NCBI RefSeq assembly: GCF_053078305.1
Contig: NZ_CP166879.1
Reading direction: 5' to 3' (one strand)
DNA length: 64,000 nt
The notes beneath the pieces were generated by a model. It saw only the letters and a list, made by a program, of their open reading frames with translations, did no database searches and was not told the DNA's origin. A program made the translations under genes and the position numbers. Positions 1-64,000 of this stretch are shown here, piece after piece (the stretch's first letter is position 1; the number at the start of each line of letters is the position of its first letter).

Positions 1-867
1 TTCGTGTTCCAGCATTACGCGCTGTTCCGCCATATGACGGTATTCGACAATATCGCTTTTGGCCTGACGGTGCTGCCGCGTCGCGAGCGCCCGAATGCCG
101 CGGCGATCAAAGCGAAAGTGACAAAATTGCTGGAGATGGTGCAGCTTGCTCATCTGGCGGATCGTTATCCGGCGCAGCTTTCCGGCGGCCAGAAACAGCG
201 TGTGGCGCTGGCGCGTGCGCTGGCTGTGGAACCGCAAATTCTGCTGCTTGATGAACCGTTTGGCGCGCTGGATGCGCAGGTGCGTAAAGAGCTGCGTCGC
301 TGGCTGCGTCAACTGCATGAAGAGCTGAAATTCACCAGCGTATTCGTGACCCACGACCAGGAAGAAGCGACCGAAGTAGCTGATCGTGTAGTGGTGATGA
401 GCCAGGGCAATATTGAACAGGCTGACGCGCCGGATCAGGTATGGCGCGAACCGGCGACCCGTTTTGTGCTCGAATTTATGGGCGAAGTGAACCGCCTGCA
501 GGGAACCATTCGCGGCGGGCAGTTCCATGTTGGCGCACATCGCTGGCCGCTGGGCTACACACCTGCGTATCAGGGGCCGGTGGATCTCTTTCTGCGCCCT
601 TGGGAAGTGGATATCAGCCGCCGTACCAGCCTCGATTCGCCGCTGCCGGTACAGGTACTGGAAGCCAGCCCGAAAGGTCACTACACCCAATTAGTGGTGC
701 AGCCGCTGGGGTGGTACAACGAACCGCTGACGGTCGTGATGCATGGCGACGATGCCCCGCAGCGTGGCGAGCGTTTATTCGTTGGTCTGCAACATGCGCG
801 GCTGTATAACGGCGACGAGCGTATCGAAACCCGAGATGAGGAACTTGCTCTCGCACAAAGCGCCTGA
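1..867 (+). CDS. cysA: sulfate/thiosulfate ABC transporter ATP-binding subunit, C-terminal part (gene starts upstream of window)
   Basis: ORF 4..867 runs to the window edge; ABC signature [15 protein letters not shown] and Walker [12 protein letters not shown] visible; position upstream of cysM. Confidence 0.9.
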
Positions 868-887
868 TAGGTTGAGTGAATGTTAAC

Positions 888-920
888 GCCCGGAGGCGCT
901 TCCCGCGATCCGGGCTTTTT
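888..920 (+). terminator. rho-independent terminator after cysA
   Basis: GC stem cccgga(889-894)/tccggg(909-914) followed by T-run 916-920. Confidence 0.5.
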
Positions 921-930
921 AATGGTGTAG

Positions 931-962
931 GCCTGATAAGACGCGCAAGCGTCGCATCAGGC
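931..962. repeat. REP (repetitive extragenic palindrome) element
   Basis: GCCTGATAAGACGCGCAAGCGTCGCATCAGGC imperfect palindrome typical of enterobacterial REP, between cysA and cysM. Confidence 0.7.
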
Positions 963-985
963 AACACCACGTATGGATAGAGATC

Positions 986-1897
986 GTGAGTACATTAGAA
1001 CAAACAATAGGCAATACGCCTCTGGTGAAGTTGCAGCGAATGGGGCCGAATAACGGCAGTGAAGTGTGGTTAAAACTGGAAGGCAATAACCCGGCAGGTT
1101 CGGTAAAAGATCGTGCGGCGCTTTCGATGATCGTCGAGGCGGAAAAGCGCGGGGAAATTAAACCGGGTGATGTGTTAATCGAAGCCACCAGTGGTAACAC
1201 CGGCATTGCGCTGGCAATGATTGCCGCGCTTAAAGGCTATCGCATGAAATTGCTGATGCCCGACAACATGAGCCAGGAACGCCGTGCGGCGATGCGTGCT
1301 TATGGTGCGGAACTGATTCTTGTCACCAAAGAGCAGGGCATGGAAGGTGCGCGCGATTTGGCGCTGGAGATGGCGAATCGTGGTGAAGGAAAGCTGCTCG
1401 ATCAGTTCAACAATCCCGATAACCCTTACGCCCATTACACCACTACCGGGCCGGAAATCTGGCAGCAGACTGGCGGGCGCATTACCCATTTTGTCTCCAG
1501 CATGGGAACAACCGGCACTATCACCGGCGTGTCACGCTTTATGCGCGAACAATCCAAACCGGTGACCATTGTCGGCCTGCAACCGGAAGAGGGCAGCAGC
1601 ATTCCCGGCATTCGCCGCTGGCCTACGGAATATCTGCCGGGGATTTTCAACGCTTCTCTGGTGGATGAGGTGCTGGATATTCATCAGCGCGATGCGGAAA
1701 ACACCATGCGCGAACTGGCGGTGCGGGAAGGAATATTCTGTGGCGTCAGCTCCGGCGGCGCGGTTGCCGGAGCACTGCGGGTGGCAAAAGCTAACCCTGG
1801 TGCGGTGGTGGTAGCGATCATCTGCGATCGTGGCGATCGCTACCTTTCCACCGGGGTGTTTGGGGAAGAGCATTTTAGTCAGGGGGCGGGGATTTAA
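986..1897 (+). CDS. cysM: cysteine synthase B (O-acetylserine sulfhydrylase B)
   Basis: 303 aa ORF; PLP-fold motifs (SVKDR, TSGNTG); synteny with cysA. Confidence 0.93.
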   Translation: MSTLEQTIGNTPLVKLQRMGPNNGSEVWLKLEGNNPAGSVKDRAALSMIVEAEKRGEIKPGDVLIEATSGNTGIALAMIAALKGYRMKLLMPDNMSQERRAAMRAYGAELILVTKEQGMEGARDLALEMANRGEGKLLDQFNNPDNPYAHYTTTGPEIWQQTGGRITHFVSSMGTTGTITGVSRFMREQSKPVTIVGLQPEEGSSIPGIRRWPTEYLPGIFNASLVDEVLDIHQRDAENTMRELAVREGIFCGVSSGGAVAGALRVAKANPGAVVVAIICDRGDRYLSTGVFGEEHFSQGAGI

Positions 1898-1899
1898 GA

Positions 1900-2359
<460 letters not shown>

Positions 2360-6229: not shown

Positions 6230-7201
6230 TTACTGTTGCAATTCTTTCTCCGTGAAGAGATCGGCAAACAATGCGGTGCTTAAATAACGCTCACCCGATG
6301 ACGGTAGAATAACCACAATATTCTTGTTGGTAAAGCTTTCATCTTCTTGTAGTTTCAACGCCGCAGCAACAGCTGCTCCAGAAGAGATACCTGCAAGAAT
6401 ACCTTCTTCTTCCATCAGACGACGCGCGGTAGAAATCGCTTCTTCATTGGTTATGCCAATGACTTTATCGACCAGCTTGAGATCGAGGTTAGCCGGGATA
6501 AAACCAGCGCCAATACCCTGAATTTTATGCGGGCCAGGTTTAATCTCTTCACCTGCCAGCGCCTGGGCGATAACTGGAGAATCGGTTGGCTCAACGGCGA
6601 CAGAGATAAGATCGGTCTTACCTTTGGTGCCTTTAATGTAGCGGCTGACGCCAGTCAGCGTACCGCCAGTCCCAACGCCAGCAATAAATACATCAACCTG
6701 ACCGTCGGTATCTTCCCAGATCTCCGGACCGGTGGTTTTTTCGTGAATTTCAGGGTTTGCCGGATTGCTGAATTGTTGCAGCAGCAGGTATTTCTCTGGA
6801 TTGCTGGCGACAATTTCTTCTGCTTTTTGGATTGCGCCTTTCATGCCTTTAGCACCTTCGGTCAGCACCAGGTTTGCACCTAACGCTTTCAGCAGCTTGC
6901 GGCGTTCAATACTCATGGTTTCTGGCATGGTCAGGGTGAGTTTGTAACCGCGAGCGGCAGCGACATAGGCCAGTGCAATCCCGGTATTACCGCTGGTTGG
7001 TTCAACCAGTTCAACGCCTGGTTTCAGCACGCCGCGCTTTTCGGCATCCCAAATCATGTTGGCACCGATACGGCACTTAACGCTGAAGCTGGGGTTACGA
7101 GATTCCACCTTCGCCAGAATGCGTCCGTTACCGATGCGATTCAGGCGAACCAGCGGCGTGTGACCGATAGTCAGCGAGTTATCTTCAAAAATCTTACTCA
7201 T
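6230..7201 (-). CDS. cysK: cysteine synthase A (O-acetylserine sulfhydrylase A)
   Basis: 323 aa [23 protein letters not shown]...; PLP-dependent fold. Confidence 0.95.
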
Positions 7202-7385
7202 GGCCTGTCCTTAACTGTATGAAATTGGGATACAACAGGTAGCATACCCGCTCAGAGAATATGCGGAAGTAAGGATTTAGCATATCTATATACAGAAGGG
7301 AAATAATGACATGAAAGATGGAATAAGGGGCGGCATAAGCCACCCCTGTTTCACACAAACGGTTTACAAAATAACCGGTAGATTG

Positions 7386-8147
7386 TTACCGCCACATCGC
7401 GTGTTTATCGCGATAGCAATCGACCCACATCGCCGTCGCGCCACAAACGGCAACGGGCATGATGAACAGATTAAGCAGCGGGATCATCGTAAACAGGCTG
7501 GTTAAAGCACCAAACTGCATATTGGTGATTTTGCGTGTGCGCAGGGCGGTGCGCATCTCTTTAAACGGCACTTTGTGGTTATCGAAGGGGTAATCGCAAT
7601 ACTGGATGGCTAACATCCAGGCGCTAAACAGGAACCACAGTACCGGCGCGACGGTTTGCCCAATACCAGGGATGAAGTAAAGAATTAGTAATACAATTGC
7701 GCGCGGCAGATACCAGGCAAATTTTTGCCATTCGCGTTTCATGATTCGCGGCACATCTTTCATGATACCGAAAATCCCGGTATCTGGCGGTGTAGCGCCA
7801 GTCAATCGTGCTTCCAGTTGTTCAGCCAATAAACCGTTAAACGGAGCGGCAATCCAGTTAGCAATCGTGGAGAAGAAATAGCCAAACACTAACAGCACAG
7901 AGATGACAGCCAGAGGCCACAACAGATAGCTCAGCCATTGTAACCAGTCCGGAACATAACTCATGAGAGTCGGGATCCAGACATCGAGTTGCGTAAAGAG
8001 CCACCAGAATGCGCCCCCCATCAACAAAATATTGACCAGCAGCGGTAAAATAACGAAACGCCGAATCCCAGGTTGCGAGACGAGCTTCCAGCCTTGCGCA
8101 AAATAGTAAAAACCGCTGCGTGGGGCAGATGTGAATGATGAAACCAT
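7386..8147 (-). CDS. cysZ: sulfate transporter CysZ
   Basis: 253 aa polytopic membrane ORF; upstream of cysK on same strand, divergent from zipA. Confidence 0.9.
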
Positions 8148-12764: not shown

Positions 12765-13691
12765 ATGAATTATTCTTTAAAACAATTAAAGGTTTTCGTC
12801 ACAGTAGCGCAGGAGAAAAGTTTTAGTCGTGCAGGAGAGCGTATCGGCCTGAGCCAGTCGGCAGTGAGTCACAGTGTGAAGGAGCTGGAAAATCATACTG
12901 GTGTTCGCCTGCTGGACAGAACCACGCGTGAAGTGGTGCTTACAGATGCAGGGCAGCAGTTGGCTTTGCGTCTTGAGCGACTGCTGGATGAACTTAACAG
13001 CACGTTGCGCGATACCGGGCGTATGGGGCAACAACTGAGCGGAAAAGTTCGGGTCGCTGCCAGCCAGACCATTTCCGCGCATCTTATTCCGCAATGCATT
13101 GCTGAAAGCCATCGCCGCTATCCAGATATTCAGTTTGTCCTGCACGATCGTCCGCAGCAGTGGGTGATGGAAAGTATTCGCCAGGGAGATGTCGACTTTG
13201 GCATCGTCATCGATCCAGGCCCAGTGGGCGATCTGCAATGTGAAGCGATTCTTTCCGAGCCTTTCTTTCTGCTTTGCCATCGCGATAGCGCTTTGGCCGC
13301 GGAAGATTATGTACCCTGGCAGGCATTACAGGGAGCGAAATTGGTGTTGCAGGATTACGCGTCAGGCAGCCGACCGCTGATTGACGCAGCGCTGGCGCGC
13401 AATGGTATTCAGGCGAATATTGTGCAGGAGATTGGACATCCGGCGACGCTGTTCCCGATGGTAGCCGCAGGCATCGGCATCAGTATTCTTCCCGCACTGG
13501 CGCTACCATTGCCTGAAGGTAGCCCACTGGTGGTAAAGCGCATTACGCCGGTTGTTGAACGCCAGTTGATGCTGGTGCGCAGGAAGAACCGTTCACTTTC
13601 CACCGCCGCTGAAGCGTTATGGGACGTGGTACGAGACCAGGGCAATGCGCTAATGGCTGGGCGGGAAGGGGATCCGTTGTATCAGATATAG
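12765..13691 (+). CDS. yfeR: LysR-family transcriptional regulator YfeR
   Basis: 308 aa; N-terminal HTH ([35 protein letters not shown]) plus substrate-binding domain. Confidence 0.85.
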
Positions 13692-14023
13692 ATATCGATA
13701 TGAGTCGTATTTTCAACAGGATTTAGAAGGGATACATTCAGAGACAAACGCTGCTCTTTCTCCTGCGCCTTTTCTGCCTGCTGTCTCTGCAACTGCGCCA
13801 GTTGTGTTTCCAGTAGGGTGACTTGCTGTTGAATCAATTCGGCCTGTTTTTGCTTGTCTTCAGCACTGCCGCTAGTGTCTACAATCTCTTTAATTTGTTG
13901 AGTGAGTTTGATGATTTGCTGACTTATCCGCGCGATTTGTGAAGCAACATCGCTACCTTGTGATGCCCTGTTACTACTCTGTGTTTGTATGGAAGGAATT
14001 GAAGTTGAAGAGATAGTGGCCAT
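13682..14023 (-). CDS. FlxA-like small protein (Q-rich coiled coil, C-terminal ...HIDIYI)
   Basis: 113 aa ORF with GAGGA RBS 7 nt upstream of ATG; composition and C-terminus resemble FlxA family; overlaps yfeR 3' end by 10 bp on the opposite strand. Confidence 0.5.
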
Positions 14024-14051
14024 TGTTCAGTCCTCGTCACTGTACGAGGTA

Positions 14052-14078
14052 ATATCGGTAGAAGAACAAGGAACTTGA
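14052..14078 (-). promoter_or_regulatory. putative sigma-28 (FliA) promoter upstream of FlxA-like ORF
   Basis: On minus strand TCAAGTTC-N11-ACCGATAT versus consensus TAAAGTTT-N11-GCCGATAA, about 28 nt upstream of the start codon. Confidence 0.35.
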
Positions 14079-14110
14079 GAAGAAAAATCAATCTTACAAA
14101 TCGCAGATAG

Positions 14111-14141: not shown

Positions 14142-14217
14142 TTGGTGGGTCGTGCAGGATTCGAACCTGCGACCAATTGATTAAAAGTCAACTGCTCTAC
14201 CAACTGAGCTAACGACC
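14142..14217 (-). tRNA. lysV: tRNA-Lys (anticodon UUU)
   Basis: Reverse complement reads GGGTCGTTAGCTCAGTTGGTAGAGCAGTTGACTTTTAATCAATTGGTCGCAGGTTCGAATCCTGCACGACCCACCA. Confidence 0.95.
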
Positions 14218-14221
14218 CGAA

Positions 14222-14297
14222 GTGGTGGGTGATGACGGGATCGAACCGCCGACCCCCTCCTTGTAAGGGAGGTGCTCTCCCAGCTGAGCTAATCACC
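14222..14297 (-). tRNA. valY: tRNA-Val (anticodon UAC)
   Basis: Reverse complement reads GGGTGATTAGCTCAGCTGGGAGAGCACCTCCCTTACAAGGAGGGGGTCGGCGGTTCGATCCCGTCATCACCCACCA. Confidence 0.95.
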
Positions 14298-14344
14298 CAC
14301 TTCGGTACTTCACATTTTTACAAGAAATTTAGCTGGTGAGAAAG

Positions 14345-14420
14345 TGGTGGGTGATGACGGGATCGAACCGCCGACCCCCTCCTTGTAAGGGAGGTGCTCT
14401 CCCAGCTGAGCTAATCACCC
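14345..14420 (-). tRNA. valX: tRNA-Val (anticodon UAC)
   Basis: Identical 76-nt tRNA-Val sequence, second copy. Confidence 0.95.
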
Positions 14421-14464
14421 ACTTCTCAATTTCTTGCTACACGGCGGAGACTACATAAAGTAGT

Positions 14465-14540
14465 TGGTGGGTGATGACGGGATCGAACCGCCGACCCCCT
14501 CCTTGTAAGGGAGGTGCTCTCCCAGCTGAGCTAATCACCC
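14465..14540 (-). tRNA. valU: tRNA-Val (anticodon UAC)
   Basis: Identical 76-nt tRNA-Val sequence, third copy; first gene of the operon on the minus strand. Confidence 0.95.
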
Positions 14541-17239: not shown

Positions 17240-17315
<76 letters not shown>

Positions 17316-17354
17316 AATTTTGCACCCAGCAAATTTGGTACGTAAACGCATCGT

Positions 17355-17430
<76 letters not shown>

Positions 17431-17469
17431 AATTTTGCACCCAGCAAATTTGGTACGTAAACGCATCGT

Positions 17470-17545
<76 letters not shown>

Positions 17546-19950: not shown

Positions 19951-19982
19951 AAAAAACCGGGGAATTATCCCCGGCTTTTTTA
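19951..19982. terminator. bidirectional rho-independent terminator between convergent pdeA and nupC
   Basis: aaaaaaACCGGGGaattatCCCCGGCttttttt. Confidence 0.7.
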
Positions 19983-22774: not shown

Positions 22775-22885
<111 letters not shown>

Positions 22886-55048: not shown

Positions 55049-55279
55049 TTAGATGATAAATGACAGCAGGAATGTGCCCGCCAGAGCGACGACTGAAGCG
55101 ATAAATGTCGCTGTCGTATAGTATTTAAATGTTTCATTGAGCGTAGCGCCGCAATATTGCTTCACCAGCCAGAAAAGCGAGTCCGTAACGATCGTGCAGC
55201 CAATCGCGCCTGAACCGATAGCAATCGCAATAATTTCCGGGCTGATGTCGGGATACAGCGGCAGCACAATGATCCATAT
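55049..55279 (-). pseudogene. dsdX: 3'-terminal remnant of D-serine permease gene dsdX (GntP family)
   Basis: Only the last ~72 codons of a GntP-type permease are present immediately upstream of dsdA; reading frame is closed by a stop at 55280-55282. Confidence 0.7.
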
Positions 55280-55373
55280 TTATATTTTCTTCTCCAGGTT
55301 GGCGATGCCAGTTGGCATGTTTTACTTACTTGCCTATATGGTTACTCGTTGGCGAGAACAGAGGCGGAATTGG

Positions 55374-55385
55374 GGACAATTGTCC
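55374..55385. promoter_or_regulatory. perfect 12-bp palindrome upstream of cscR
   Basis: GGACAATTGTCC about 110 bp upstream of cscR start; candidate operator. Confidence 0.25.
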
Positions 55386-55497
55386 GGGAATTATTGTTAT
55401 TTTTTATTGTATTGCCGTGTCAGGTGATAGGGCGTTGGATCTCGCCAGTGACGTCTGTTTCTGCTACAGTGCCCGTTTTACGGCAAACGGCTTGGGT

Positions 55498-56493
55498 ATG
55501 GCTTCATTAAAGGATGTCGCACGCCTGGCGGGAGTGTCGATGATGACAGTCTCCCGGGTGATGCATAATGCAGAATCTGTGCGTCCTGCAACGCGTGACC
55601 GCGTATTGCAGGCAATCCAGACCCTGAATTATGTTCCTGATCTTTCCGCCCGTAAGATGCGCGCTCAAGGACGTAAGCCGTCGACTCTCGCCGTGCTGGC
55701 GCAGGACACTGCTACCACTCCTTTCTCTGTTGATATTCTGCTTGCCATTGAGCAAACCGCCAGCGAGTTCGGCTGGAATAGTTTTTTAATCAATATTTTT
55801 TCTGAAGATGACGCTGCCCGCGCGGCACGTCAGCTGCTTGCCCACCGTCCGGATGGCATTATCTATACTACAATGGGGCTGCGACATATCACGCTACCTG
55901 AGTCTCTGTATGGTGAAAATATTGTATTGGCGAACTGTGTGGCGGATGACCCAGCGTTACCCAGTTATATCCCTGATGATTACACTGCACAATATGAATC
56001 AACACAGCATTTGCTCGCGGCGGGCTATCGTCAACCGTTATGCTTCTGGCTACCGGAAAGTGCGTTGGCAACAGGGTATCGTCGGCAGGGATTTGAGCAG
56101 GCCTGGCGTGATGCTGGACGAGATCTGGCTGAGGTGAAACAATTTCACATGGCAACAGGTGATGATCACTACACCGATCTCGCAAGTTTACTCAATGACC
56201 ACTTCAAATCGGGCAAACCAGATTTTGATGTTCTGATATGTGGTAACGATCGCGCAGCCTTTGTGGCTTATCAGGTTCTCCTGGCTAAGGGGGTACGTAT
56301 CCCGCAGGATGTCGCCGTAATGGGCTTTGATAATCTGGTTGGCGTCGGGCATCTGTTTTTACCGCCGCTGACCACAATTCAGCTTCCACATGACATTATC
56401 GGGCGGGAAGCTGCATTGCATATTATTGAAGGTCGTGAAGGGGGAAGTGTGACGCGGATCCCTTGCCCGCTGTTGATCCGTTGTTCCACCTGA
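55498..56493 (+). CDS. cscR: LacI-family sucrose operon repressor
   Basis: 331 aa from MASLKDVARLAGVSMMTVSRVMHN (LacI HTH); the track ORF from 55312 is an upstream extension. Confidence 0.85.
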   Translation: MASLKDVARLAGVSMMTVSRVMHNAESVRPATRDRVLQAIQTLNYVPDLSARKMRAQGRKPSTLAVLAQDTATTPFSVDILLAIEQTASEFGWNSFLINIFSEDDAARAARQLLAHRPDGIIYTTMGLRHITLPESLYGENIVLANCVADDPALPSYIPDDYTAQYESTQHLLAAGYRQPLCFWLPESALATGYRRQGFEQAWRDAGRDLAEVKQFHMATGDDHYTDLASLLNDHFKSGKPDFDVLICGNDRAAFVAYQVLLAKGVRIPQDVAVMGFDNLVGVGHLFLPPLTTIQLPHDIIGREAALHIIEGREGGSVTRIPCPLLIRCST

Positions 56494-56500
56494 TATTATG

Positions 56501-57934
56501 TTAACCCAGTTGCCAGAGTGCTCCATGTTGCACCACAGCCACTCCGTGGGAGGCATAAAGCGACAGTTCCCGTTCTTCTGGCTGCGGATAGATTCGACTA
56601 CTCATCACCGCTTCCCCGTCGTTAATAAATACTTCCACGGATGATGTATCGATAAATATCCTTAGGGCGAGCGTGTCACGCTGCGGGAGGGGAATACTAC
56701 GGTAGCCGTCTAAATTCTCGTGTGGGTAATACCGCCACAAAACAAGTCGCTCAGATTGGTTATCAATATACAGCCGCATTCCAATGCCGAGCTGTAATCC
56801 GTAATGTTCGGCATCACTGTTCTTCAGCGCCCACTGCAACTGAATCTCAACTGCTTGCGCGTTTTCCTGCAAAACATATTTATTGCTGATTGTGCGGGGA
56901 GAGATAGATTGATGCTGCTGGCGTAACGACTCAGCTTCGTGTACCGGGCGTTGTAGGAGTTTGCCATTGCTCTCTGATAGCTCGCGCGCCAGCGTCATGC
57001 AGCCTGCCCAGCCTTCACGTTTTGAGGGCATTGGCGATTCCCACATATCCATCCAGCCGATAACAATACGCCGACCATCCTTCGCTACAAAGCTTTGTGG
57101 TGCATAAAAGTCATGCCCGTTATCAAGTTCAGTAAAATGCCCGGATTGTGCAAAAAGTCGTCCTGGCGACCACATTCCGGGTATTACGCCACTTTGAAAG
57201 CGATTTCGGTAACTGTATCCCTCGGCATTCATTCCCTGCGGGGAAAACATCAGATAATGCTGATCGCCAAGGCTGAAAAAGTCCGGACATTCCCACATAT
57301 AGCTTTCACCCGCATCAGCGTGGGCCAGTACGCGATCGAAAGTCCATTCACGTAATGAACTGCCGCGATAAAGCAGGATCTGCCCCGTGTTGCCTGGGTC
57401 TTTCGCCCCGACTACCATCCACCATGTGTCGGCTTCACGCCACACTTTAGGATCGCGGAAGTGCATGATTCCTTCTGGTGGAGTGAGGATCACACCCTGT
57501 TTCTCGAAATGAATACCATCCCGACTGGTAGCCAGACATTGTACTTCGCGAATTGCATCGTCATTACCTGCACCATCGAGCCAGACGTGTCCGGTGTAGA
57601 TAAGTGAGAGGACACCATTGTCATCGACAGCACTACCTGAAAAACACCCGTCTTTGTCATTATCGTCTCCTGGCGCTAGCGCAATAGGCTCATGCTGCCA
57701 GTGGATCATATCGTCGCTGGTGGCATGTCCCCAGTGCATTGGCCCCCAGTGTTCGCTCATTGGGTGATGTTGATAAAACGCGTGATAACGATCGTTAAAC
57801 CAGATCAGGCCGTTTGGATCGTTCATCCACCCGGCAGGAGGCGCGAGGTGAAAATGGGGATAGAAAGTGTTACCCCGGTGCTCATGAAGTTTTGCTAGTG
57901 CGTTTTGCGCCGCATGCAATCGAGATTGCGTCAT
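56501..57934 (-). CDS. cscA: sucrose-6-phosphate hydrolase / invertase (GH32)
   Basis: 477 aa from MTQSRLH...; GH32 motifs WMNDPNG, FRDPKV, WECPD. Confidence 0.88.
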   Translation of the reverse strand: MTQSRLHAAQNALAKLHEHRGNTFYPHFHLAPPAGWMNDPNGLIWFNDRYHAFYQHHPMSEHWGPMHWGHATSDDMIHWQHEPIALAPGDDNDKDGCFSGSAVDDNGVLSLIYTGHVWLDGAGNDDAIREVQCLATSRDGIHFEKQGVILTPPEGIMHFRDPKVWREADTWWMVVGAKDPGNTGQILLYRGSSLREWTFDRVLAHADAGESYMWECPDFFSLGDQHYLMFSPQGMNAEGYSYRNRFQSGVIPGMWSPGRLFAQSGHFTELDNGHDFYAPQSFVAKDGRRIVIGWMDMWESPMPSKREGWAGCMTLARELSESNGKLLQRPVHEAESLRQQHQSISPRTISNKYVLQENAQAVEIQLQWALKNSDAEHYGLQLGIGMRLYIDNQSERLVLWRYYPHENLDGYRSIPLPQRDTLALRIFIDTSSVEVFINDGEAVMSSRIYPQPEERELSLYASHGVAVVQHGALWQLG

Positions 57935-57966
57935 TTTAATCATCCTGGTTAAGCAAATTTGGTGAA

Positions 57967-58044
57967 TTGTTAACGTTAACTTTTATAAAAATAAAGTCCC
58001 TTACTTTCATAAATGCGATGAATATCACAAATGTTAACGTTAAC
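57967..58044. promoter_or_regulatory. cscA / cscKB divergent control region with two copies of a LacI-type operator palindrome
   Basis: TGTTAACGTTAAC occurs at 57967-57980 and 58032-58044 (core GTTAACGTTAAC is palindromic). Confidence 0.55.
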
Positions 58045-58149
58045 TATGACATTTTGTGATCGAATATGCATGTTTTAGTAAATCCATGACGATTTTGCGA
58101 AAAAGAGGTTTATCACTATGCGTAAGTCAGATGAATTTAAGGGAAAAAA

Positions 58150-59064
58150 ATGTCAGCCAAAGTATGGGTTTTAGGGGATGCGGTAGTAGATCTCTTGCCA
58201 GAATCAGACGGGCGCCTACTGCCTTGTCCTGGCGGCGCGCCAGCTAACGTTGCGGTGGGAATCGCCAGATTAGGCGGAATAAGTGGGTTTATAGGTCGGG
58301 TCGGTGATGATCCTTTTGGTGCGTTAATGCAAAGAACGCTGCTAACTGAGGGAGTCGATATCACGTATCTGAAGCAAGATGAATGGCACCGGACATCCAC
58401 GGTGCTTGTCGATCTGAACGATCAAGGGGAACGTTCATTTACGTTTATGGTCCGCCCCAGTGCCGATCTTTTTTTAGAGACGACAGACTTGCCCTGCTGG
58501 CGACATGGCGAATGGTTACATCTCTGTTCAATTGCGTTGTCTGCCGAGCCTTCGCGTACCAGCGCATTTACTGCGATGACTGCGATCCGGCATGCCGGAG
58601 GTTTTGTCAGCTTCGATCCCAATATTCGTGAAGATCTATGGCAAGACGAGCATTTGCTCCGCTTGTGTTTGCGGCAGGCGCTACAACTGGCGGATGTCGT
58701 CAAGCTCTCGGAAGAAGAATGGCGACTTATCAGTGGAAAAACACAGAACGATCGGAATATATGCGCCCTGGCAAAAGAGTATGAGATCGCCATGCTGTTG
58801 GTGACTAAAGGTGCAGAAGGGGTGGTGGTCTGTTATCGAGGACAAGTTCACCATTTTGCTGGAATGTCTGTGAATTGTGTCGATAGCACGGGGGCGGGAG
58901 ATGCGTTCGTTGCCGGGTTACTCACAGGTCTGTCCTCTACGGGATTATCTACAGATGAGAGAGGAATGCGACGAATTATCGATCTCGCTCAACGTTGCGG
59001 AGCGCTTGCAGTAACGGCGAAAGGGGCAATGACAGCGCTGCCATGTCGACAAGAACTGGAATAG
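58150..59064 (+). CDS. cscK: fructokinase (ribokinase/pfkB family)
   Basis: 304 aa; pfkB motifs (VVDLLPE..., DSTGAGDAFVAGLL). Confidence 0.88.
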   Translation: MSAKVWVLGDAVVDLLPESDGRLLPCPGGAPANVAVGIARLGGISGFIGRVGDDPFGALMQRTLLTEGVDITYLKQDEWHRTSTVLVDLNDQGERSFTFMVRPSADLFLETTDLPCWRHGEWLHLCSIALSAEPSRTSAFTAMTAIRHAGGFVSFDPNIREDLWQDEHLLRLCLRQALQLADVVKLSEEEWRLISGKTQNDRNICALAKEYEIAMLLVTKGAEGVVVCYRGQVHHFAGMSVNCVDSTGAGDAFVAGLLTGLSSTGLSTDERGMRRIIDLAQRCGALAVTAKGAMTALPCRQELE

Positions 59065-59135
59065 TGAGAAGTAAACGGCGAAGTCGCTCTTATCTCTAAA
59101 TAGGACGTGAATTTTTTAACGACAGGCAGGTAATT

Positions 59136-60383
59136 ATGGCACTGAATATCCCATTCAGAAATGCGTACTATCGTTTTGCATCCAGTTACTCATTTCTCTT
59201 TTTTATTTCCTGGTCGCTGTGGTGGTCGTTATACGCTATTTGGCTGAAAGGACATCTAGGGTTGACAGGGACGGAATTAGGTACACTTTATTCGGTCAAC
59301 CAGTTTACCAGCATTCTATTTATGATGTTCTACGGCATCGTTCAGGATAAACTCGGTCTGAAGAAACCGCTCATCTGGTGTATGAGTTTTATCCTGATCT
59401 TGACCGGACCGTTTATGATTTACGTTTATGAACCGTTACTGCAAAGCAATTTTTCTGTAGGTTTAATTCTGGGGGCGCTCTTTTTTGGCCTGGGGTATCT
59501 GGCGGGATGCGGTTTGCTTGACAGCTTCACCGAAAAAATGGCGCGAAATTTTCATTTCGAATATGGAACAGCGCGCGCCTGGGGATCTTTTGGCTATGCT
59601 ATTGGCGCGTTCTTTGCCGGCATATTTTTTAGTATCAGTCCCCATATTAACTTCTGGTTGGTCTCGCTATTTGGCGCTGTATTTATGATGATCAACATGT
59701 GTTTTAAAGATAAGGATCACCAGTGCGTAGCGGCGGATGCGGGAGGGGTAAAAAAAGAGGATTTTATCGCAGTTTTCAAGGATCGAAACTTCTGGGTTTT
59801 CGTCATATTTATTGTTGGGACGTGGTCTTTCTATAACATTTTTGATCAACAACTTTTTCCTGTCTTTTATGCAGGTTTATTCGAATCACACGATGTAGGA
59901 ACGCGCCTGTATGGTTATCTCAACTCATTCCAGGTGGTACTCGAAGCGCTGTGCATGGCGATTATTCCGTTCTTTGTGAATCGGGTAGGGCCAAAAAATG
60001 CATTACTTATCGGTGTTGTGATTATGGCGTTGCGTATCCTTTCCTGCGCGCTGTTCGTTAACCCCTGGATTATTTCATTAGTGAAGCTGTTACATGCCAT
60101 TGAGGTTCCACTTTATGTCATATCCGTCTTCAAATACAGCGTGGCAAACTTTGATAAGCGCCTGTCGTCGACGATCTTTCTGATTGGTTTTCAAATTGCC
60201 AGTTCGCTTGGGATTGTGCTGCTTTCAACGCCGACTGGGATACTCTTTGACCACGCAGGCTACCAGACAGTTTTCTTCGCAATTTCGGGTATTGTCTGCC
60301 TGATGTTGCTATTTGGCATTTTCTTCCTGAGTAAAAAACGCGAGCAAATAGTTATGGAAACGCCTGTACCTTCAGCAATATAG
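59136..60383 (+). CDS. cscB: sucrose:H+ symporter (oligosaccharide:H+ symporter family, LacY-like)
   Basis: 415 aa 12-TM MFS ORF. Confidence 0.88.
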   Translation: MALNIPFRNAYYRFASSYSFLFFISWSLWWSLYAIWLKGHLGLTGTELGTLYSVNQFTSILFMMFYGIVQDKLGLKKPLIWCMSFILILTGPFMIYVYEPLLQSNFSVGLILGALFFGLGYLAGCGLLDSFTEKMARNFHFEYGTARAWGSFGYAIGAFFAGIFFSISPHINFWLVSLFGAVFMMINMCFKDKDHQCVAADAGGVKKEDFIAVFKDRNFWVFVIFIVGTWSFYNIFDQQLFPVFYAGLFESHDVGTRLYGYLNSFQVVLEALCMAIIPFFVNRVGPKNALLIGVVIMALRILSCALFVNPWIISLVKLLHAIEVPLYVISVFKYSVANFDKRLSSTIFLIGFQIASSLGIVLLSTPTGILFDHAGYQTVFFAISGIVCLMLLFGIFFLSKKREQIVMETPVPSAI

Positions 60384-60824
60384 ACGTAAACTTTTTCCGG
60401 TTGTTGTCGATATCTCCATATCCTTCAACCGGAAAATAATAATACTAAAATGCTTAGCCCTGCTAATAATCGCCTAATCCAAACACCTCATTCATGTTCT
60501 GGTACAGTCGCTCAAATGTACTCCGGATACACGGTTCGCTGATTTCCAGGACATTGTCGTCATTCAGCGACCTGTCGCGTGTATCACGGGCCTGCGAATT
60601 CATCAAGGAATGCATTGCGGAGTGAAGTATCGAGTCACGCCATATTTCGCTATCAGGATTCTGTGTGATGGTTACATCGCCCGGCCCAAGGCTGTTTAGT
60701 CATCAGCGCTTTCTGACAGTGCTGAGATTTCAACCTGTTGCAGTAAAAATGAGTAGATATAGGGCAAGTGTGCTGCCAAACCCATCGTTTACGGGATGAA
60801 GGTAGATTTGGTTTGAAGGGTATC

Positions 60825-60839
60825 TGGTGTCCCCTGCAG
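60825..60839 (-). other. prophage att core: copy of the 3' end of tRNA-Arg (argW-type)
   Basis: TGGTGTCCCCTGCAG is the reverse complement of ...CTGCAGGGGACACCA (3' acceptor end of tRNA-Arg-CCU as recalled); similarity stops after 15 nt, so this is a partial copy and not a tRNA gene. Confidence 0.5.
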
Positions 60840-61217: not shown

Positions 61218-61496
61218 TCATCGAGTGTGAGGCGGTGTGATTCCATGGTTACCTCTGCTTTTTGAACGCATGTCACGTAACTTCTTAATGTGTTCTGCCG
61301 TTTCGATCTCTTCTGCTATCCGATCTGCATCAGCTTTATTCACAGGTTCAAAGTCATGATTAAAGCGGAACATGCTGGCGATACATGTTCTGCCTTTTCG
61401 GATGTAGTGAACTTTGTTGTGGTTAGAACGCAGGATTTTGCAGGGAGTGCCGTGGTGGTCGACGTACCAGGTGTTAGGCAAAATGATTCTGAACAT
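61218..61496 (-). CDS. hypothetical prophage protein
   Basis: 92 aa ORF co-oriented with the prophage early-left operon. Confidence 0.45.
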   Translation of the reverse strand: MFRIILPNTWYVDHHGTPCKILRSNHNKVHYIRKGRTCIASMFRFNHDFEPVNKADADRIAEEIETAEHIKKLRDMRSKSRGNHGITPPHTR

Positions 61497-61543
61497 TTTT
61501 ACACCTCAGTTGGACGATGTTGAAATTTGCTCCTTTGAGGTCA

Positions 61544-61762
61544 TCACAATCCCCATTGTTTGTTCTTAAGTTCGATCTCCTCCTGGCAACTTGCACAAGT
61601 CCGACAACCCTGAACGGCTAGGCGTCTTCGCTTATCTATGGGATCGCCACACTCACAACAATGAGTGGCAGATATAGCCTGGTGGTTCAGGCGGCGCATT
61701 TTTATTGCTGTGTTGCGCTGTAATTCTTCAATTTCTGATGCTGAATCAATGATGTCTGCCAT
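61544..61762 (-). CDS. DksA/TraR-family C4 zinc-finger protein (phage-encoded)
   Basis: 72 aa with CxxC-N17-CxxC (CCECGDPID...CRTCASC). Confidence 0.6.
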   Translation of the reverse strand: MADIIDSASEIEELQRNTAIKMRRLNHQAISATHCCECGDPIDKRRRLAVQGCRTCASCQEEIELKNKQWGL

Positions 61763-61860
61763 CTTTCATTAATCCCTGAATTGTTGGTTAATACGCTTGA
61801 GGGTGAATGCGAATAATAAAAAAGGAGCCTGTAGCTCCATGAAGATTTTGCTTTTCATGT

Positions 61861-62142
61861 TCACCGTTCCTTAAAGACGCCGTTTAACATACCGATTGCC
61901 AGACTTAAGTGAGTCGGTGTGAATCCCATCAGCGTTACCGTTTCGCGGTGCTTCTTCAGTACGCTACGGCAAATGTCATCGACGTTTTTATCCGGAAACT
62001 GCTGTCTGGCTTTTTTGATTTCAGAATTAGCCTGACGGGCAATACTGCGAAGGGCGTTTTCTTGCTGAGGTGTCATTGAACAAGTCCCATGTCGGCAAGC
62101 ATAAGCACACAGAATATGAAGCCCGCTGCCAGAAAAATGCAT
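61861..62142 (-). CDS. hypothetical prophage protein (start uncertain; internal Met would give about 71 aa)
   Basis: 93 aa ORF in the early-left region. Confidence 0.4.
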   Translation of the reverse strand: MHFSGSGLHILCAYACRHGTCSMTPQQENALRSIARQANSEIKKARQQFPDKNVDDICRSVLKKHRETVTLMGFTPTHLSLAIGMLNGVFKER

Positions 62143-62152
62143 TCAGTGGTTG

Positions 62153-62344
62153 TCATACCTGGTCTCTCTCATCTGCTTCTGCTTTCGCCACCATCATTTC
62201 CAGCTTTTGTGAAAGGGATGTGGCTAACGTATGAAATTCTTCGTCTGTTTCTGCTGGTATTGGCACAAACCTGACTCCAATTTGAGCAAGGCTATGTGCC
62301 ATCTCAATGCTCGTTCTTAACTCAACAGGAGATGCTTTGTGCAT
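62153..62344 (-). CDS. hypothetical small prophage protein
   Basis: 63 aa ORF immediately downstream of exo in the same operon orientation. Confidence 0.4.
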   Translation of the reverse strand: MHKASPVELRTSIEMAHSLAQIGVRFVPIPAETDEEFHTLATSLSQKLEMMVAKAEADERDQV

Positions 62345-62495
62345 ACAGCCCCTCGTTTATTATTTATCTCCTCAGCCAGCCGCTGGGCTTTCAGTGGATT
62401 TTGGATAACAGAAAGGCCGGGAAATACCCAGCCTCGCTTTGTAACGGAGTAGACGAAAGTGATCGCACCTACCCGGATATTATCGTGAGGATGCT

Positions 62496-63176
62496 TCATC
62501 GCCATTGCTCCCCAAATACAAAACCAATTTCAGCCAGTGCCTCGTCCATTTTTTCGATGAACTCCGGCACCATCTCGTCAAAACTCGCCATGTAATTTTC
62601 ATCCCGCTCAACCACGACATAATGCAGGCCTTCACGCTTCATGCGTGGGTCATAGTTGGCAAAGTACCAGGCATCTTTTCGCGTCACCCACATGCTGTAC
62701 TGCACCTGGGCCATGTAAGCCGACTTTATGGCCTCGAAACCACCGAGCCGGAACTTCATGAAATCCCGGGAGGTAAACGGGCATTTCAGCTCAAGACCAT
62801 TGCCGTCACTGCATAAACCATCGGGAGAGCAGGCGGTGCGCATACTTTCGTCGCGATAGATGATCGGGGATTCAGTAACATTCACGCCGGAAGTGAATTC
62901 AAACAGGGTTCTGGCGTCGTTCTCGTACTGTTTTCCCCAGGCCAGCGCCTTAGCATTAACTTCCGGAGCCACACCGGTGCAAACCTCAGCCAGCAGGGTG
63001 TGGAAGTAGGACATTTTCATGTCAGGCCATTTCTTTCCGGAGCGGGGTTTTGCTATCACGTTGTGAACTTCTGAAGCTGTGATGACGCCGAGCCGTAATT
63101 TGTGCCACGCATCATCCCCCTGCTCGACAGCTCTCACGTCGATCCCGGTACGCTGCAGGATAATGTCTGGTGTCAT
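62496..63176 (-). CDS. exo: lambda-type 5'-3' exonuclease (Red alpha)
   Basis: 226 aa [37 protein letters not shown]...; matches phage lambda Exo as recalled. Confidence 0.9.
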
Positions 63177-63958
63177 GCTGCCACCTTCTGCTCAGTGGCT
63201 TTTTGTTTCAGGAATCCAAGAGCTTTCACTGCTTCGGCCTGTGTCAGTTCTGACGATGCACGAATGTCGCGGCGAAATATCTGGGAACAGAGCGGCAATA
63301 AGTCGTCATCCCATGTTTTATCCAGGGCGATCAGCAGAGTGTTAATCTCCTGCATGGTTTCATCGTTAACCGGAGTGATGTCGCGTTCCGGCTGGCGTTC
63401 TGCAGTGTATGCGGTATTTTCGACAATGCGCTCGGCTTCATCCTTGTCATAGATACCAGCAAATCCGAAGGCCAGGCGGGCACACTGAATCATGGCTTTA
63501 TGCCGTAACATCCGTTTGGGATGCGACTGCCACGGGCCGGTGATTTCTCTGCCTTCGCGGGTTTTGAATGGTTCGCGTCGGCATTCATCCATCCACTCGG
63601 TAACGCAGATCGGATGATTACGGTCTTTGCGGTAAATCCGGCATGTACAGGATTCATTGTCCTGCTCAAAGTCCATGCCATCAAACTGCTGGTTTTCATT
63701 GATGATGCGGGACCAGCCATCAACGCCCACCACCGGAACGATGCCGTTCTGCTTATCAGGGAAGGCGTAAATTTCTTTCGTCCACGGATTAAGGCCGTAC
63801 TGGTTGGCGACGATCAACAATGCGATGAACTGCGCATCGCTGGCATCGCCTTTAAATGCTGTCTGGCGAAGAGTGGTGATCAGTTCCTGTGGGTCGACAG
63901 AATCCATGCCGACACGTTCAGCCAGCTTCCCTGCCAGCGTTGCGAGTGCTGTACTCAT
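63173..63958 (-). CDS. bet: lambda-type single-strand annealing protein (Red beta)
   Basis: 261 aa [35 protein letters not shown]...; start overlaps exo by 4 nt. Confidence 0.9.
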
Positions 63959-63963
63959 CCGTT

Positions 63964-64000
63964 TTATACCTCTGAATCAATATCAACCTGGTGGTGAGCA
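63964..64000 (-). CDS. gam: Gam-like RecBCD inhibitor, C-terminal end only (gene continues beyond window)
   Basis: Minus-strand frame ends ...AHHQVDIDSEV* 5 nt upstream of bet start, consistent with the lambda Gam C-terminus. Confidence 0.6.
   Translation of the reverse strand, partial: AHHQVDIDSEV

Follow-up and report, generated by a model that had tools for sequence, protein, structure and literature searches.

Chromosomal insertion hotspots, at which differing accessory genes are found between conserved core genes, are a familiar concept in pan-genome research. The gene yfeS of Escherichia coli K-12 lies between two such neighbors, cysM, the final gene of the cysPUWAM cluster, and yfeK, an order that presumably corresponds to b2421-b2420-b2419. 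In K-12, yfeK is a member of the sigmaE regulon and forms a single operon with yfeS (PMC2685091, PMC11502571), and it has been listed among sigmaE promoters (PMC3326320).

The 64,000-nucleotide stretch of E. coli DNA analyzed here (the window) departs from this description, as yfeK stands alone and abuts the convergent gene cysM. Our comparative analysis indicates that the window very probably retains the ancestral, uninterrupted cysM/yfeK junction, and that the yfeS insert of K-12 is foreign DNA that entered once and later spread in a minority of strains.

The uninterrupted junction in the window

The coordinates of the features discussed are collected in Table 1. The CysM protein of the window is identical (100%) to the annotated CysM of strain A16, the nearest complete genome (99.9% identity over 1 kb), in which RefSeq annotates the same two coding sequences, cysM and yfeK, separated by the same gap; the 2 bp between the stop codons described in the initial annotation are therefore correct. 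The product of yfeK belongs to the Pfam family PF17263 (DUF5329/YfeK; E = 2.3e-31, 108.3 bits against a gathering cut-off of 27 bits), and its N-terminus looks like a signal peptide. The C-terminus reads ...KTVPAQ* in the window, compared with ...KTVPAEGN* in the 124-aa protein of K-12.

Table 1. Coordinates of features in the window (position 1 is the first nucleotide of the 64-kb stretch).
Feature	Coordinates	Strand	Basis and remarks
cysM (cysteine synthase B)	986..1897	+	ORF, 303 aa; stop TAA at 1895-1897
Spacer between convergent stop codons (GA, 2 bp)	1898..1899	.	Sequence; alignment with K-12-type L001; junction comparison
yfeK	1900..2268	-	ORF, 122 aa, GTG start; stop is the complement of 1900-1902
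Inverted repeat, 11-bp stem, 12-nt loop	1902..1935	.	Fold; inside the last yfeK codons, starts 5 nt past the cysM stop
SigmaE-type promoter motif of yfeK	2302..2329	-	-35 GAAACTT 2329..2323, 16-nt spacer, -10 TCAAA 2306..2302
LacI-family regulator	55312-56493		csc-type cluster
Sucrose-6-phosphate hydrolase family gene	56501-57943	-	csc-type cluster
Fructokinase	58150-59064		csc-type cluster
Oligosaccharide/galactoside MFS permease	59136-60383		csc-type cluster
Lambda-exonuclease family gene (exo)	62496-63176	-	Lambdoid prophage
bet	63173-63958	-	Lambdoid prophage

The gene order given for K-12 in the initial annotation, with yfeS between cysM and yfeK, is that of the K-12-type genome JME66 (cysA, cysM, yfeS, yfeK, pdxK, crr), in which yfeS encodes 244 aa on the minus strand in window orientation and yfeK encodes 124 aa; the yfeS segment is also present in MG1655 with 100% identity. 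On both sides of the junction, K-12 and the window share cysA, cysM, yfeK, pdxK, crr, and ptsI in the same order and orientation, with DNA 97-99% identical, whereas K-12 alone carries an extra 952 bp with a BIME and yfeS, together with a YfeK of 124 aa ending in AEGN. Pairwise alignment with the K-12 interval, the comparison proposed in the initial annotation, shows that the additional K-12 DNA lies entirely between positions 1897 and 1903, so that the 2-bp spacer represents the empty site at which K-12-type genomes hold the yfeS cassette.

The absence of yfeS was likewise borne out, since a tblastn search across the 64-kb window recovered no remnant of the gene (best match to K-12 YfeS, E = 2.3). 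When the cassette DNA was searched against the same 64 kb, the sole match was a 35-bp REP copy at 22796-22830. The REP nearest to the junction sits upstream, in the cysA-cysM interval, where a REP-like palindrome, GCCTGATAAGACGCGCAAGCGTCGCATCAGGC, occupies positions ~925-965; the junction itself carries no REP. The K-12 stretch aligned to window positions 1-1902 is 16 bp longer than its counterpart.

Other segments of the window also differ from K-12. About 0.4 kb at 13692-14100 stands in place of the ~4.5 kb that in K-12 hold yfeN, xapA, xapB, xapR, and the RtT sRNA repeat; this replacement segment includes a 113-aa Gln/Ser-rich ORF (13682..14023, minus strand) that looks like a coiled coil. 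Tandem tRNA arrays lie at 14143-14540 and 17240-17545, the former comprising Lys(UUU) and three Val(UAC) genes and the latter three Ala(GGC) genes; the annotation of JME66 lists two Val and two Ala copies, and copy number varies between strains. At ~19960-19971 the window lacks the IS4-like element (annotated as IS421 family) that separates nupC from pdeA in the K-12-type genome. A csc-type sucrose cluster at 55266-60825 replaces dsdC and most of dsdX of K-12, beside dsdA, and from 61233 to 64000, where K-12 has the CPS-53 prophage remnant, the window contains recombination genes of a lambdoid prophage that continues beyond position 64000.

The yfeS cassette and its distribution

The K-12 insert measures 952 bp from repeat to repeat and starts directly after the cysM stop codon. 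Moving away from cysM, it consists of two inverted REP units forming a BIME, whose fold (-50.7 kcal/mol, z = -4.5) is stable, then yfeS, a further 32 bp, and an altered 3' end of yfeK. The 8-bp sequence GGATTAAT is directly repeated at both ends of the cassette (positions 1999-2006 and 2951-2958 of the K-12-type locus L001), and the same is true of the cassettes of BL21 and of a Pseudocitrobacter metagenome-assembled genome (MAG), as would be expected of a target-site duplication. Conversely, no terminal inverted repeats were found in the cassette, the end-to-end alignment score being 7 compared with a shuffle mean of 6.8, and it encodes no transposase or integrase, its only ORF product being a WGR-domain protein. 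In E. coli HYM1, a frameshifted IS1397-family element (6654-8003) has inserted into the cassette on the cysM side of yfeS, within the part that bears the BIME; IS1397 is an insertion sequence specific for BIMEs.

The composition of this segment and the relatives of its product mark yfeS as foreign. The GC content is 40.6% for the cassette and 39.2% for yfeS, while cysM, pdxK, and yfeK reach 56.5%, 52.2%, and 46.4%, respectively. YfeS, the sole protein of the cassette, contains a WGR domain only. Among 5.8 billion proteins, those at least 80% identical to it were E. coli clusters and one partial protein labelled Shigella; beyond E. coli/Shigella, the best full-length match in this collection was one unnamed protein with 65% identity, and the named relatives, from Paenibacillus, Dysgonomonas, Lysinibacillus, and Clostridium, were at most 58% identical. 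Among solved structures, the sole match for YfeS was the WGR domain of 2ra8, an uncharacterized Bacteroides protein.

Carriage of yfeS by mobile elements was also considered and rejected. In the plasmid collection, the only listed plasmid with a near full-length YfeS match was NZ_CP098226.1 (70% identity), and this match is a frameshift-ridden chromosomal crr-pdxK-yfeK-yfeS-cysM fragment; the entry is described as a 50-kb E. coli plasmid and resembles a chromosomal contig that was mis-binned or left unpolished. The phage collection gave partial matches only, with 31% identity and from Listeria.

The survey of 5426 complete E. coli genomes shows that K-12 represents the less frequent state. The junction is uninterrupted, with the same length as in the window, in 4038 of them, and the yfeS segment is present (at least 80% of it) in 1381 (25%). 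Carriers include K-12, BL21, and several pig enterotoxigenic (ETEC) strains, and non-carriers include O157:H7 (EDL933), Nissle, O145:H28, and O111:NM. A16 and O157:H7 genomes share an architecture identical to that of the window, with an annotated 2-bp gap and 98.7-99.9% identity over a 1-kb query; for Nissle, O111:NM, and O145:H28, the likeness to the window consists of the lack of the yfeS segment only. Thus, the window belongs to the majority class and shows no substantive difference from other yfeS-less E. coli. The cassette occurs in E. coli as two alleles, at least 99% and about 95% identical to that of K-12; the BL21 allele is 95.3% identical and differs by a 16-bp indel. These alleles show that the yfeS insert is not very recent, and in principle an empty allele could consequently have replaced it by recombination in some of the yfeS-less lineages.

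Outgroups share the junction of the window. Scanning species-representative genomes with YfeK returned 22 loci. Among them, those of Pseudocitrobacter faecalis (TAA-GT-TTATTGCGCAGG) and of a second species representative labelled E. coli (TAA-GA-TTATTGCGCGGG) likewise have 2 bp between the stop codons; in both, the spacer is followed by TTATTGCGC(A/G)GG. In Escherichia sp. E1V33, the 3' ends of cysM and yfeK share 12 nt (1417-1428) and the C-terminus of YfeK reads ...TTVPSNP, a tighter convergence than in the window. In Enterobacteriaceae UBA5654, Citrobacter amalonaticus, Superficieibacter sp., and Entomohabitans, yfeS is absent and the two genes lie about 10-90 bp apart. The same junction length and sequence type thus recur in outgroup species and genera, and the window holds no remnant of yfeS, of the BIME, or of the AEGN tail, as an ancestral allele should.

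Origin of the polymorphism

The initial annotation had proposed two origins for the missing gene, namely a clean deletion in the lineage of the window or a lineage-specific insertion in K-12. Under the former, the ancestor would have had the order cysM-yfeS-yfeK, as in K-12, and yfeS would have been lost precisely. The 8-bp direct repeat flanking the cassette could mediate such a loss, and the window retains no residue between cysM and yfeK. However, loss from repeat to repeat predicts the sequence TAAGGATTAATTTCCTTCCGCAGG and the AEGN terminus of YfeK, whereas the window reads TAAGATTATTGCGCAGG and its YfeK terminates in PAQ; relative to the predicted product (TAAGGATTAATTTCC..., that is, the TAA-GGATTAAT-TTCC form, with YfeK ending in AEGN), the window junction is shorter by 6-7 nt and differs in sequence. 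Nor does this product occur in the material searched. A 120-nt construct of the excision product, equivalent to the progenitor, found at best a match of 94.2% that was 6 nt shorter among the 5426 E. coli genomes, and a 30-nt IUPAC version of the excision junction gave 0 matches in metagenome contigs. The filled junction, used as a positive control in those contigs, gave 30 matches, each of them in E. coli surroundings, and yfeS was present in every contig that extended far enough; a K-12-type yfeK tail without yfeS was never seen. The window-type junction is, moreover, common to P. faecalis and other outgroups, and independent precise deletions are implausible given that a junction of the same length and type occurs in two genera. 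Together with the low GC content and distant homologues that mark yfeS as foreign, these observations make a deletion highly improbable. The probability that a mis-join or collapse in the source assembly removed yfeS is negligible, as junctions of identical length occur in 4038 independent complete genomes and RefSeq annotates the same arrangement.

Insertion is favored over deletion by the population survey, the outgroups, the foreign character of yfeS, and the missing deletion product. The second proposal of the initial annotation was therefore supported as regards insertion and had to be corrected as regards its range, because the insert is not confined to K-12 but extends to about 25% of E. 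coli and one Pseudocitrobacter MAG. With an overall divergence of ~5%, the cassettes of K-12, BL21, and this MAG agree exactly at both junctions, in the two copies of GGATTAAT, and in the altered yfeK tail; these shared features point to one insertion event, after which homologous recombination in the conserved flanks spread the cassette. The YfeS of the MAG is 94% identical to that of K-12, and the identity values of its YfeK (84%) and PdxK (66%) agree with those of P. faecalis (85% and 65%), so the yfeK and pdxK of the MAG are Pseudocitrobacter-like. This implies that the spread of the cassette probably crosses genera, the example being a metagenome-assembled genome for which a chimeric bin is conceivable.

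In the mechanism that we propose, a low-GC cassette of ~0.95 kb, comprising the BIME, yfeS, and a new 3' end of yfeK with its own stop codon, would have been acquired horizontally. It would have entered once, exactly at the stop-to-stop junction, bounded by GGATTAAT, and then have spread in ~25% of E. coli, including K-12 and BL21. It would also have arrived in at least one Pseudocitrobacter, with homologous recombination in the conserved cysM/yfeK flanks as the most likely route.

How the cassette first entered is a separate question. Other genera and species carry unrelated cargo at the same point, which identifies the cysM/yfeK junction as a local insertion hotspot: in E. albertii the insert measures 1.8 kb (34.5% GC) and contains two ORFs of no known function, in Citrobacter sedlakii it is 3.8 kb long and has two large ORFs, one or both with TPR repeats, and in Superficieibacter electus 0.5 kb encode a SnoaL/DUF4440 protein. 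PADLOC models gave no match for YfeS, YfeK, or the cargo proteins of E. albertii and C. sedlakii. Every insert alters the last yfeK codons, and since the breakpoint lies within these codons, each insert supplies a new YfeK tail. The locus resembles described chromosomal hotspots in its conserved core flanks and in the differing low-GC accessory cargos at one inter-gene point; unlike them, its inserts are very small (1-2 genes) and are accompanied by neither an integrase nor a tRNA.

These features bear on whether the K-12 form arose by a targeted, transposition-like insertion that duplicated its target site, with the stop junction of cysM and yfeK as a preferred target. The exact repetition of GGATTAAT at both ends in K-12, BL21, and the Pseudocitrobacter MAG accords with this mechanism, as does the presence of four unrelated cargos at one junction in different lineages. 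Nevertheless, the cassette has no terminal inverted repeats, transposase, or integrase, and without these the repeat could be either a target-site duplication or plain microhomology. The inserts of E. albertii, C. sedlakii, and S. electus, in turn, are not flanked by direct repeats of at least 8 bp, and no empty progenitor with a single GGATTAAT was found in E. coli genomes or metagenome contigs. Illegitimate recombination mediated by microhomology, with later spread through homologous flanks, fits equally well, and we consider a targeted insertion unlikely. A broader version, in which the stop-to-stop point is a recurrently targeted micro-hotspot in Enterobacteriaceae that has received at least four unrelated, mostly low-GC cassettes through an unrecognized targeted process rather than random recombination, is in our view more doubtful still.

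Transcript ends at the junction and significance for E. coli

The motifs upstream of yfeK match the sigmaE consensus and may represent its promoter; they are unchanged in K-12-type DNA, the 104 nt upstream of the gene containing two differences elsewhere. The two gene organizations diverge downstream, where K-12 has yfeK and yfeS in one operon. Cassette-bearing strains would co-transcribe yfeS with yfeK, and the yfeK unit of the window would be monocistronic.

The initial annotation had also stated that the junction leaves no room for a terminator. This holds for the intergenic space, as a consensus scan for intrinsic terminators over positions 1890-1940 on both strands detected no terminator-like site. 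It needs qualification inside the gene, because a stem-loop without a U-tract lies just within the 3' end of yfeK; it is followed by UAACGCAUG on the plus strand and by AAUCUUAAAU on the minus strand. This inverted repeat arises from repeated Ala-Gln codons of yfeK and folds no better than shuffled sequences (z -0.47 for an 81-nt segment and -1.07 for a 91-nt segment). K-12-type genomes have a shorter version of its stem, more distant genera lack the stem altogether, and the repeat is not conserved outside Escherichia and Pseudocitrobacter. Counts of canonical terminators and promoters were not above those of shuffles, and an Rfam scan of the window returned only tRNAs, with no RNA family at the junction.

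From the nucleotide sequence, it is possible that the inverted repeat acts as a shared 3'-end hairpin of cysM and yfeK. Since there is no intergenic intrinsic terminator, the convergent transcripts would have to stop at this weak hairpin or run antisense until Rho acts. In the first case, the cysPUWAM and yfeK transcripts may pause or be trimmed at the hairpin; alternatively, each may extend as antisense RNA into the opposing gene until Rho ends it. Read-through RNA from yfeK across the 3' end of cysM would be C-rich (34% C, 25% G).

At the cysM/yfeK junction, the window carries the more common allele of a gene-content polymorphism, one already documented by the annotation of thousands of RefSeq genomes. 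The finding is ordinary insofar as the window strain, on the reading preferred here, never had the yfeS insert. Absence relative to K-12 should not be read as deletion at this locus, as it is K-12 that holds the minority, derived state. The gene order of K-12 is thus not the species default for cysM and yfeK, and most E. coli have a sigmaE-regulated yfeK unit without yfeS. The 2-bp convergent junction could serve as a convenient natural case of convergent transcript ends without an intergenic terminator. Furthermore, when phenotypes are attributed to yfeS in K-12, boric-acid sensitivity (PMC11502571) being one example, the gene in question is an accessory one that about 75% of strains lack.
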